Shown: positions 7,377 to 49,527 of the stretch, piece by piece
How positions within the stretch are numbered: position 1 is the stretch's first letter
Layout of the letters: each line of letters begins with the position of its first letter
Assembly: GCA_951406725.2 (NCBI GenBank)
Contig: OX597816.1
Coordinates: 154,938,001 to 155,002,000 of the forward strand
Direction of reading: 5' to 3'
Source: Octopus vulgaris
Lineage: Eukaryota
Length of the DNA stretch: 64,000 bases
Notes under the pieces: model-generated
What the model saw: the letters and a program-made list of their open reading frames with translations, nothing else
What the model was told of the DNA's origin: nothing
Databases searched by the model: none
Position numbers and translations under genes: made by a program

Positions 7377-7580
7377 AAGGTGTTTGTAAGCCATTTAAGA
7401 AACACACAAAAGCCGTTCGATTCACTTCAACATTTAAGGAATATCAGATGCAGCACGGATTTTTGTCAGTGAACAGGCCGCGGTCTTATAGCGACGAAAA
7501 TATTTTGACAAATTAAACTTAAATGTTGAAGTGAATCGAACGGGTTTTGTGTGTTTCTTAAATGGCTTACAAACACCTTC
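7376..7580. repeat. Inverted repeat with 63-bp arms (7376-7438 / 7518-7580) enclosing a hammerhead motif; Penelope pLTR-like
   Basis: GAAGGTGTTTGTAAGCC..CATTTAAG versus its reverse complement, one mismatch. Confidence 0.92.
7462..7512 (+). ncRNA. Minimal type-I hammerhead ribozyme, G3-C8 core variant
   Basis: Stem I TTTGTCA/TGACAAA, core GTGAACA, stem II (G)GCCGC..GCGAC, GAAA, palindromic ATAT, then TT. Confidence 0.7.
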
Positions 7581-7739
7581 CACGCTGAAATTGTTTTCGT
7601 TCCAGCACACGATCTCAGATCAAATCACTTGCTATACAAGTACATCTCCGTAATATATATATATATATATATATATATATATATATATATATATATATAT
7701 ATATTGTGTGTGTGTGTGTGTGAGTGTGTGGCAGATAAA

Positions 7740-7942
7740 GTGGTCAGCTGACAGAATCGTTAGCACGCCAGGCAGAATGCTTAGCAGCATTTCGTCCTTC
7801 TTTACGTTCTGAGTTCAAGTTCCGCCGAGGTTGACTTTACTTTTCATCCTACTGAAGTCGATAAAATAAGTACCAGCTGAACAGTGGGGTTGGTTTAATC
7901 GATTTAAAGCCTGTTTCGAACTTGCTGGCCAAAATTTGAAAC
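7740..7942 (+). mobile_element. tRNA-derived SINE, family B (monomer)
   Basis: AGCTGACAGAATCGTTAGCACGCC..TTCTGAGTTCAAGTTCCGCCGAGG..TTTCATCC..GTCGATAAAATAAGTACCAG, shared with many copies in the window. Confidence 0.85.
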
Positions 7943-9169
7943 TATGTATATATGAAGGAAATATTCTTGTTTTATCAAGAAAATATTCGTTATTGTGTTA
8001 AAGTATATATATATATATATATATATATGCATGCAAAACGAGAGAAAGCAAAATGTGGAGATTTTTTTAGCACTACTAAGCGTCTTCTATACAGAGAATC
8101 TCTAGATCTCATCTGTGGAGTATGTATGTATGTATGTATGTATGTATGTATGTATGTATGTATGTATGTATGTATGTATGTATGTATGCATGCATGTATT
8201 ATAACATACGAACGCCTGTGTTTGTAATTAATTTTGCTTGGTAGTTCAAGTTTTGCCTATTGGCTTATTCATCCTGTTGCAATATAGTTTTATTTTGAAA
8301 AGTTTCTCATAGTGAAAAATAGAAACTGCTTTAGCTGTTATTTATAATTACGACGAGATTATTGTAAGAAAGAGAAAAATACAATTTAATAATTTTCTGG
8401 AGAGGAATATTGGATATTAATGCAAAGTAGGTGAGTGGGTGAAGGAAGAAACTGAAAGTGGGGGATGGTTGAGTACGAGAATTACCAGATAGTGATTCTA
8501 TTGAATTTATGAACTTCAAGGCGATGGCTACGAATATTAGAGAAGGTGAAAATTGGTTTGGGATCTTGGGCAGTCTATTTTCATGTCGCTATTTGTGTAC
8601 GTATGCATTTTTGCATATAGTTTGAAATTTTTGTGATATGCATTGTTCTCGTGAATTTGTGTATGTACGTGCTTGTTTGTGATTGTTTATGTATGTGTGA
8701 GTGAGTGTGGAAATGTTTATTTGTGTGTGTGTGTGTGTGTGTATGTGCGTGTATTAAATTATCTATTTGGAGTGAACTTTTGCAAAATAATGGGTACGTT
8801 AATATAGAAAATTAAATGTAAATTCAAATAGAAATTTTGAGTTTAAATATTCTAAAAATAAATATTTTCTACAATATTTTTTATATAATTCTTTTAAATA
8901 TGTACAAATATATTTTGTATTAATTTGTTAGTTTTCTTAAATTATAATGTTCGTGTTTAGATGTATGTGGATTTGCGTCTTTGCGAGCAGATGCGTACGT
9001 ACAAGGAGTACTTTTCTGGGGAGGGGATGAGTGCGTATGCATGTTTATTTATTTGGTTATTTTACATTTCAGTCAGTAAAACAGAATATTCAGAATAATG
9101 ATTTGAAAAAGATATCTAAAATCAAAGTTTCTTGAAATATTTGTAACTATTTTATTTATAACTGTGGAT

Positions 9170-9555
9170 CAGGCATAGCTGTGTGGTTAAGAAGCTCGCT
9201 TCGCGACCGTGTGGTTTCGGGATCAATCTCACTGCATGGCACCTCGGATATGTGTCTTCTACTATAGTTCAGAACCGATCAATACCTTGCGAATGAATTT
9301 ACTAGACGGAAACTGTGAGGCATCCTGTCGTATGTGTGTATGAGTGTGAGTGTGTATGTGTGTGTCTTTGTACTTGTTTGTTCATTGCTGTTGCTTTGTT
9401 TAGATCACCGTAAATCAACGGTTCAGTAAGAGACCACAAAATAAACATCAGACTTTAAAATAAGTACCGGGGTCGATTTTTGTTTTGACTAAGCCCTCCA
9501 AGGTGGTGCACCAGCATGGCTGAGGTCCAATGAGTGAAACAAGTACAAGATAACG
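9170..9555 (+). mobile_element. SINE family A, diverged copy
   Basis: Colinear similarity to 62352-62650 and 36251-36720. Confidence 0.8.
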
Positions 9556-47035: not shown

Positions 47036-47390
47036 GGTGCAGGCGTGGCTGTGTGTTAACAAGCTTGCTACCCAACCACATGGTTCGGTTCAGTTCCACT
47101 GCGTGGCACCTTGGGCAAGTGTCTTCTACTATTCTACAATAGCTTCGCGCCGACCAAAGCCTTGCCAGTGGATTTGATAGAGGGAAACTGAAAGAAACCC
47201 GTCGTACTTATATTTATACACACACACACACACACACACACACACACACACACACACACACATATATATATATATATATATATATATATATATATATATA
47301 TGCATGTATGTATGTATTTGTGCGCCTGTGTGTGTCTCACTACCATTGCTTGACAATCGATGCTGGTGTGTTTACGTCCCCGCAACTTAT
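47036..47390 (+). mobile_element. SINE family A, 3'-truncated
   Basis: GGTGCAGGCGTGGCTGTGTG..CACCTTGGGCAAGTGTCTTC. Confidence 0.85.
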
Positions 47391-47709
47391 ATCTGAATGT
47401 GTGTGTATGTGCATATGTGTGTAGTTGCTTAAATATTTGTCTCTGCACACGCACACGCACACACACACACACACTCACACACACTCACACACATACACTC
47501 AAGCACGCGCATATAATTCTGGAAGCTTTTCATCTTCCTATTCTAATTTGACTTTTATGTGAAGAAAGCTAGTATCACACATTCCGTCTGATTTGGACAA
47601 AGTGAAGACCTACAAAACTCACTTTGACCTGGTTACTTAAGTTTGAACCGATTGCCAAGTTTATATATATATATATATATATATATATATATATATATAT
47701 ATATATATA

Positions 47710-48210
47710 CTAGCAGCATAGCCCGGCATTGCCCGGATATGTAAGAGCCCCTGGAACAGACATGATGCTTGCTGTGAATTAAAAAAAAATTCCTGCCAAT
47801 TTGTGAAAGATATTCTCGAAAATATGTCATCTTGAATTTGAACGCGATTTCCCAAAATGGCATGATTTTATCGATTTTTTCTAATGGTAAGGTATTGCAT
47901 GGAAAACTAACGTCAGAATTAAGTTTCTTATGGTAACATTAAGCTTCAGCATGAGTTTGGTGAAAATCGATTGCAAGTTGCGAAAACTACAACAGAAAAT
48001 GTGTTGCAAATAAAAAGCTTAGATTCTCGATCCCACGTCGAATCTATCAATTTTTTTCAGAACTGGGGGAACTTTTCAAAATTTTCGCTGCGTTAGTTGT
48101 GAATTATGACATTGGGCTATGTGTGTGTCAAGTTTCATCAGAATCGGTTGAAAGCCGTGGTCAGGATGAGGGTACAACCTGACAGACACACAGACAAACT
48201 GCCGTATATA
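47710..48210 (-). mobile_element. Non-autonomous Helitron (relative of 41492-41875)
   Basis: CTAG end with a CCGGGCAATGCCGG hairpin; shares the AACTGGGGGAACTTTTCAAAATTTTCGCTGCG..ACAGACAAACTGCCGT block. Confidence 0.78.
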
Positions 48211-49331
48211 TATATATATATATATATATGTATAAATGTATCTAAGTATCTAAGTATGGATGTGTATATGTATGGATGTTATCCTTTCCCCTGTTCTTTT
48301 TTCTCTCTGAACCTCTCTCCCCTCTCCCCTCTCCCTTTCTCACACTTGTCCTGTACGTGACCAGTCGCAAATTCTCTTGGTAAGCTATTAAGACCGTTAT
48401 ACGGGTGGATATAAGTATGCAAACAGACAGTTACATAATCAAATACCTGTATTCTTGGAGAACTACGAAACAATTGCGAATAATAAATAAATGTCCAACC
48501 ATTAACGATTAAAAAAACTAAAATGTATAATTTTAAGTGAATGATGGGGAGCATGAGCAAGACTCCAGAATAAATATTGAAACAAATTTGATTAGAGACA
48601 TATGATACAGGAAATGTAGCGAAATATAATGATCAAATTAATGATCCTTTCATGTTCCTGTGGTATGGTACAATTTCATAATTGTGGTATATGCGCGTGT
48701 GTGTGTGTGTGTGCGTGCGCGCGTGTTTATGTGTGATTGTTATCTGAAGAGGAAATATAACGGAAGTTAAAAGAAATATATAAAAGAATTGAAGTAAAAG
48801 CTCAGAACTAAAGTATGAAGTAAAACGTCAAAGATGCAATGTTGAAAGCAACGAGGAGTGATGTACGTGAAATATATGTGATATTTTTTTAATGAGTAAA
48901 AAGAAAGGAAAAAGTGTGAATTATGTGAATTATTAAAAATTCTACGACTCCAACTATGAAGAGGTGGAGAATAGTACTGTGAATGGAAGTAGAGGCAGAT
49001 TAGTCGACGACGAAGAGAGTTGCTGAAGACGACGAAAGCATCATATTTAAACATATTATCGCGTAAAAGGTTATTGTAATTGAAAATACCATAAAGATTA
49101 AGAACATAATTGTACAGACACATAGTTAAAGAAGGAAATATGCATGAATAGTTTTAGTATTACATAGATACACACAAACACACATACATAAACGTTCAGC
49201 ATATAAACACAAATACATACATACATACATATATATATATATATATACTATATATATACTATATATATATATATATATATATATATATATATATATATAT
49301 ATATATATATATATATATATATATATATATA

Positions 49332-49527
49332 GTTAATCCAAACATGAAAACACAAAGAGAAAACAGAACAACGCGAGAATGTGGAACATGTATAGTGTTA
49401 TCGGACGCTCAGGAAAGGAAAGAAAGAAGGAGGATTTAACGTTTCGTGCGGAGCTCTTCGTCAGAAACATAGAGAAAGGAAAGATCCAAGGAAGGACAAA
49501 ATCGCCAATGATACACACGCGGTCAAA
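49332..49527 (-). mobile_element. Penelope pLTR fragment abutting (TA)n
   Basis: Contains the hammerhead motif below; pyrimidine-rich tail on the minus strand. Confidence 0.6.
49434..49468 (-). ncRNA. Minimal hammerhead ribozyme motif (canonical core)
   Basis: Minus strand: GTTT-CTGACGA-AGAGC-TCC-GCAC-GAAA-CG-TT-AAAT; one mismatch in stem II. Confidence 0.6.

Follow-up and report, generated by a model that had tools for sequence, protein, structure and literature searches.

Hammerhead ribozyme folds with exchanged 3-8 pairs in Penelope-like element families of Octopus vulgaris

Hammerhead motifs in the window

The window is a 64,000-nucleotide stretch of the Octopus vulgaris genome (assembly GCA_951406725.2, 2.8 Gb; contig OX597816.1, positions 154,938,001 to 155,002,000), with ~35% GC, many microsatellites, repeats resembling short interspersed elements (SINEs) and broken retrotransposon open reading frames (ORFs). 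It contains eight hammerhead ribozyme-like motifs, starting at 7462, 12314, 20315 and 30874 on the plus strand and at 34907, 45635, 49434 and 53788 on the minus strand, and each belongs to a repeat family that we name by this position. Both the starts and the core heptamers agree with those written in a first-pass annotation of the same DNA. Coordinates of the motifs and of the repeat copies carrying them are given in Table 1.

Table 1. Hammerhead motifs and associated repeat copies, in window positions.
Feature	Positions	Strand	Details
G3-C8 type-I hammerhead fold	7462..7512	+	G3 at 7469, C8 at 7474, extra G at 7476, U17 at 7505
3' terminal fragment of the 7462 Penelope-like family, 209 bp	7444..7652	+	(TA)n at end
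Inverted, shortened copy of the 7462 element	7376..7438	-	abuts 5' side of 7444..7652
Hammerhead with long stem II	12314..12395	+	U3 (12319) private in a C3-G8 family
Decayed minimal hammerhead from a C3-G8 family	20315..20352	+	core changes, 8-nt deletion
Intact minimal hammerhead	30874..30915	+	U3 (30879) with A8 (30884); palindromic ACCGGT stem III
C3-G8 hammerhead	34907..34964	-	C3 at 34959; short element of ~400 bp with inverted partner
Canonical-type type-I hammerhead	45627..45686	-	U3 at 45670, A8 at 45665, C17 at 45641; CGCG stem III, CAAUA loop 2
1.55 units of a 363-bp non-coding retrozyme-like repeat	45403..45965	-	
C3-G8 minimal hammerhead	49434..49468	-	one added A following position 9; stem II mismatch private to this copy
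Decayed copy of the CUGUNGA (A6U) family	53788..53823	-	

The type-I core (N3-U-G-A-N-N8-A, GAAA, UH and three stems) is present in the 7462, 12314, 20315, 30874, 34907, 45635 and 49434 families. The 53788 family is hammerhead-like and is not a canonical type-I member, since A is not the base at position 6. One added base between positions 9 and 10.1 is required by the 7462, 49434 and 53788 motifs. In 7462, stem III is a palindromic ATAT and the stem II mismatch is private to the window copy. The term ‘minimal’, first applied to the motifs as a set, does not suit all eight: 45635 is of canonical build, with a stem I of 6 bp that continues into a bulged extension and a stem II of 4 bp closed by the CAAUA loop, and 12314 has a stem II region of ~50 nt, with further private changes in the window copy besides U3. 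Likewise, 20315 and 53788, which had been called degenerate, are indeed decayed copies, though the former comes from a C3-G8 family and the latter from a large CUGUNGA family. Stem II opens with A-U, not the usual G10.1-C11.1, in the 12314 and 34907 families.

A systematic genome sample (140 pieces of 10 kb taken at fixed positions on 29 contigs, 1.4 Mb) was scanned with a strict type-I descriptor in which any base was allowed at positions 3, 6 and 8 and one extra base was permitted after position 9. There were 40 matches; the three dinucleotide shuffles used as controls (4.2 Mb) gave 3 and the reversed sequence gave 1. The motifs are thus real type-I hammerhead folds, far above chance (~1 strict match expected per 1.4 Mb). 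A relaxed descriptor gave 67 matches against 10 in reversed sequence, a noise level too high for pair counts.

Chance folding or copy-specific decay would be compatible with the folding z-scores of the eight motif windows, which are weak (-2.2 to +0.8, with minimum-energy folds that miss the hammerhead cores), and with an Rfam scan of the window, in which no hammerhead is found among the 150 matches listed of 251. The matches listed are mostly microsatellite-driven microRNA models, and the scan is uninformative for minimal motifs. Decay does hold for the U3-G8 pair at 12314 and for the window copies 20315 and 53788. As a general account of the motifs, chance folding or decay is extremely improbable given the 40 strict matches where ~1 is expected and thousands of exact family copies with 0 control matches, and it is refuted for 7462, 30874 and 45635. 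One further candidate, a core-like 12-mer at 5478, was rejected: it has no GAAA, no stems and no second copy among the loci examined.

In the sample, strict folds occur once per 35 kb, and copies of the eight families, decayed ones included, once per 16.5 kb (85 in 1.4 Mb). The estimate of one motif per 8-10 kb, drawn initially from the window, is therefore of the right order, with the window itself (1 per 8 kb) on the high side of the range.

The 3-8 pair across families

Positions 3 and 8 pair with each other in the active hammerhead. The first-pass annotation had claimed that this pair covaries among the motifs as C-G, U-A, G-C and U-G; at the level of families the first three states are found and the fourth is not. 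Similarity searches score the best 40 candidates and favour the query's own variant, and we relied instead on pattern counts and the systematic sample. Where aligned rows are quoted below, they are similarity-selected, overlapping loci may recur among them, and 8 rows without core coverage were dropped.

A pattern for the 7462 family that leaves positions 3 and 8 free has 5,345 exact matches in the genome and 0 in controls (a second pattern has 5,588); among the first 100 of the 5,345 by position, 93 are G-C, 7 carry one change and none is C-G. For the 45635 family there are 1,121 exact matches with 3 and 8 free, and the first 100 are all U-A, with A or C at N7. Aligned rows give U-A in 37 of 38 for the 30874 family, and C-G in 31 of 32 and 29 of 31 for the 34907 and 49434 families, respectively. 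Reversion of family consensuses to CTGANGA, the outcome expected if the variants were mere decay, thus fails for G3-C8 and for both U3-A8 families. It does occur at 12314, where the 31 exact genome matches to a pattern open at 3 and 8 comprise 26 C-G, 3 C-A and 2 U-G. Because this family is mostly C-G, and because U-G singletons turn up among the aligned rows of other C-G families too, we rejected U3-G8 as a case of covariation and attribute it to copy-specific decay. Pairing at 3-8 is Watson-Crick at family level, with deviations in the window copies 12314 (U-G), 20315 and 53788 (both C-A), and among the eight families none is altered at only one of the two positions.

The strict matches in the sample agree with this pattern. 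All 24 that have A at position 6 are Watson-Crick at 3-8, a pairing that the descriptor did not demand (19 C-G, 4 U-A, 1 G-C); they are not all independent, as a single tandem array accounts for 7 of the C-G matches and a single locus for 3 of the U-A ones. A3-U8 is found in none of the 24, and no genome-wide search was made for it. The remaining strict matches comprise 14 with U6 and C3-G8, and 2 with G6. It follows that a search for CUGANGA alone, as had been anticipated, would miss many of these folds (21 of 40). The diversity supposed to lie among the missed ones was overstated, since 14 belong to the A6U family and 3-8 swaps contribute only 5 matches in 3 loci. The 7462 and 30874 families have stem II letters in common, which would suggest kinship, but their flanks differ by eye and the endonucleases linked to them look unlike.

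Additional C3-G8 families with long stem II hairpins occur in the sample (L167, L196, L221, L238, L170, L220, L244 and others). Singletons of the relaxed scan include one possible U-A fold of another sequence type (L225, minus strand, ~7400 from the start) and one C-A (L208).

The A6U (CUGUNGA) family of 53788 is the largest that we counted, with 16,332 exact pattern matches; U is at position 6 in 96 of the first 100 of these and in 31 of 33 sampled copies. In a survey of 30 copies, retrieved with an anchor that held two stem II columns and the GAAA columns constant, variation was seen at N7, where all four bases occur, and at position 17, which is A or U and never G, a distribution that would be expected of a constrained hammerhead. 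A second departure from the canonical core, U4C, was seen in the 49434 family, where 10 of 21 sampled copies have it. Stem I starts with G-C in the 49434 family and with C-G in the similar-looking 53788 family, which would be a compensated change if the two are kin.

Carrier elements and the 45635 repeat

In the 7462 family, the motif is close to the beginning of a 209-bp fragment with (TA)n at its end, which is often accompanied by an inverted copy ~57 bases shorter; direct copies end at 209 and inverted copies at 151-153, both running into (TA)n. The inverted partner at 7376..7438, next to the fragment at 7444..7652, has the shape typical of insertions of Penelope-like elements (PLEs), and a like shape is found in the 30874, 34907 and 45635 families. 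Longer copies of the 7462 family place the G3-C8 motif 1.3 kb 3' of a GIY-YIG ORF (E 1.4e-4; 22.5 bits, cut-off 22.6), which is itself preceded by pieces resembling reverse transcriptase (RT) with a YVDD motif (RVT_1, E 0.064). The 30874 motif lies ~750 nt 3' of a GIY-YIG-like ORF in three loci (L005, L012 and L027; E 0.0012), and members of the 12314 family lie 190-420 nt 3' of such an ORF (E 0.0022). The order expected of a PLE, RT followed by a C-terminal GIY-YIG domain upstream of the hammerhead, is therefore present in the 7462 family, while in the 30874 and 12314 families only the GIY-YIG-like part is found. We take the Cys-rich linkers in L303 and L005 to resemble those of the Nematis and Neptune types. 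One locus (L314:1877-3313) has at least nine tandem units of ~172 bp, each with a G3-C8 motif and (TA)n, and looks like a retrozyme-like array derived from a PLE 3' end.

The 45635 motif belongs to a 363-bp non-coding unit with one type-I hammerhead per unit (42% GC), found both as dispersed identical copies and as tandem arrays with a period of 360-363 bp. This build, in which non-coding units of a few hundred bp follow one another in tandem and each has a single hammerhead, fits that of retrozymes not based on long terminal repeats (non-LTR retrozymes). The family is young, because 35 of the best 40 copies match a 111-base query completely. A second subfamily, 80% identical to the first, likewise has U3-A8 and differs from it at N7. 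A 359-bp repeat of like build, ~50% identical to the 45635 unit, has C3-G8. This 359-bp unit forms a tandem and inverted array at L162:2097-4768, with a canonical C3-G8 hammerhead and a CAAUA loop. In contigs from sequencing runs, the 45635 unit is covered wholly or partly by four runs, none of which lists a change at position 3 or position 8; the head-to-tail joint of the unit is seen alike in presumed-RNA and other runs and is uninformative on expression, circles or cleavage.

The motifs are hammerheads of PLEs or retrozymes, in support of the first-pass link to PLEs.

Selection, drift and known ribozymes

The reading that we favour, and consider probable, is that hammerhead folds occur in the 3' ends of several PLE families and in short non-coding derivatives of them, and that a compensated 3-8 pair became fixed in three families, G-C in one and U-A in two, and likely kept their source elements competent to cut. 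By the mechanism known from published work, two hammerheads on a tandem transcript would pair through their palindromic stem III, with cleavage after position 17. The freed unit-length RNA may circularise and could be copied back by the PLE RT together with the endonuclease, with the reverse-transcribed unit inserting at (TA)n. The swaps would have been fixed in source lineages since single changes fail, a route favoured because there are three families with double changes and no family with a single change at 3 or 8. Nearly all genomic copies would be truncated dead ends now in decay, yielding singletons such as the U3-G8 at 12314.

Several observations weigh against this reading. Only three swap families look independent, a small number. 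An in vitro study (PMC9901934), in the parts accessible to us, reports low activity in all other core mutants and names only the G:C swap, not U-A, as rescuing. No ORF was found linked to the 34907, 45635, 49434 or 53788 motifs within ~1.5 kb of the copies examined, and the two copies extended by 6 kb proved truncated or interrupted, so that a full-length element with a hammerhead at each end was not recovered. Every Pfam score for the linked ORFs is under its curated cut-off, and the PLE assignment therefore rests jointly on motifs, domain order and insertion shape. Lastly, the A6U family (16,332 matches) and the U4C subfamily have spread despite cores expected to cleave poorly. Their success weakens the argument, made in the first-pass annotation, that paired changes point to selection for catalysis. 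Such selection is likely, not shown, and could act on source elements only rather than on the dispersed, mostly truncated copies.

It is conceivable that the hammerhead is dispensable, with core variants fixed by drift in source lineages and the three paired families due to luck or a relic of older selection. The largest family being A6U, and a large subfamily U4C, would fit such drift. So would published work, cited here from partial text: A6C strongly lowers cleavage in magnesium (PMC3088659, PMC7151607), Naiad PLEs spread without canonical hammerheads (PMC8557442), and minimal PLE hammerheads cleave poorly in vitro, their activity being low but detectable and confined to dimers (PMC4209133). 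Strong cleavage may thus be unneeded, considering the success of A6U and U4C, the poor performance of A6C in magnesium and the Naiad elements. We nevertheless regard drift as unlikely: it should yield families with a single change at 3 or 8 more often than families with double changes, and none is seen; G3-C8 demands two transversions; and the A6U motif varies only at N7 and position 17, positions that hammerheads leave free.

A role for the fold other than cutting, for instance in dimerisation of the RNA or in its recognition by the PLE protein, with 3-8 conserved for shape only, seems to us very unlikely. It would sit well with A6U, which we infer would harm chemistry more than shape, and with the fact that most copies stand beside an opposite-strand inverted partner, which cannot form a dimer in cis. 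However, all families retain G12, A13, A14, U16.1 and a base other than G at position 17, each of them required for catalysis, and canonical retrozyme hammerheads of similar build cleave efficiently according to the accessible text of PMC7229834.

A more speculative proposal, which we put forward tentatively and think somewhat doubtful, is that the genome holds two undescribed natural cores at transposon scale. One would be G3-C8, across a valley of two transversions and in more than 5,000 copies; the other would be an A6U core that still cuts, slowly or with another metal requirement, such damping being favoured since uncut multimers spread.

PLE hammerheads, their abundance and natural U3-A8 pairs are already known (PMC4209133, PMC3088659). 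As far as its accessible text goes, the study of Cervera and de la Pena 2014 (PMC4209133) describes minimal hammerheads dispersed on a massive scale from truncated PLEs, with a palindromic stem III and one added base following position 9, and reports U3-A8 families, with ~1,300 U3-A8 hits in Schistosoma mansoni. The octopus motifs resemble these in type-I topology, short palindromic stem III, extra base at 9/10.1 and common U17, as well as in lying at the 3' ends of PLEs that are truncated, in occurring as opposite-strand pairs and in their dispersal as thousands of single copies from many families. Among the 56 representatives in Fig. S3 of its supplement, there are two U3-A8 and one U3-G8 (Saccoglossus), with no G3-C8 and no U6 core, and the exact-match counts obtained here for G3-C8 (5,345) and A6U (16,332) are above the copy numbers in the accessible text.

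In the portions available, PMC7229834 reports that retrozymes yield linear and circular monomer RNA. Metazoan non-LTR retrozymes (Cervera and de la Pena 2020, PMC7229834; Li et al., bioRxiv 10.64898/2026.07.22.740005) have, like the 45635 family, a ~360-bp non-coding tandem unit with one canonical type-I hammerhead (units of 350-390 bp in mussels vs. ~360 bp here), judging from the same partial texts. Unlike them, the 45635 family has a U3-A8 core and many copies of 1-1.6 units with inverted partners, as in PLEs.

Natural U3-A8 covariation was reported by Perreault et al. 2011 (PMC3088659), and changes at position 6 (A6C) and U4C are known as well (PMC3088659, PMC7151607); in the accessible parts of these two papers such variants are rare single cases, not high-copy transposon families, and neither G3-C8 nor A6U is mentioned. 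In vitro, the C3G/G8C swap is the sole rescuing double mutant in the core region of the hammerhead tested in PMC9901934, with strong positive epistasis, by the part of that paper at hand. The exchange is that of the 7462 family, but in a laboratory type III ribozyme, not a natural type-I element. A G3-C8 variant was also tested in the laboratory according to the available text of PMC3884650. No natural family with G3-C8 or A6U came up in the literature, where coverage of papers on PLE hammerhead variants is incomplete and several sources are partial; there is none among the 25 matches listed of 51 for octopus hammerheads, and none in the accessible portions of PMC6765202, PMC6155905, PMC11014351 and bioRxiv 10.64898/2026.07.22.740005. 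Both the PLE family with G3-C8, present in high copy number, and the A6U family behind the motif first labelled degenerate are likely new.

A single genome in which C-G, U-A and G-C families coexist with the highly successful A6U and U4C ones offers a natural comparison bearing on whether PLE movement needs cutting (PMC4209133, PMC8557442). Since about half of the strict hammerhead-like folds here (21/40) escape CUGANGA descriptors, published counts are underestimates.

The window also holds further fragments. A broken PLE ORF on the minus strand at 28750-30420 has, by eye, RWK and DKT motifs, marks of the Hydra clade in the available part of PMC8557442. Broken PLE-like ORF pieces with RT or endonuclease motifs were seen by eye at 31944-33950 (+), 49512-49907 (+), 55715-56146 (-) and 63521-63886 (+). 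Pfam searches of eight window ORFs matched only the zf-RVT domain of an unrelated long interspersed element (LINE) at 3261-4388 and none of the PLE-like pieces. This broken LINE-type element occupies 1042-4388 (-), with a 376-aa frame at 3258-4388 that carries the zf-RVT match (E 5.5e-4). A SINE-like repeat is present at 22253-22737 as head-to-tail copies with a 183-bp period, and more of its copies are clustered at 38100-39500.

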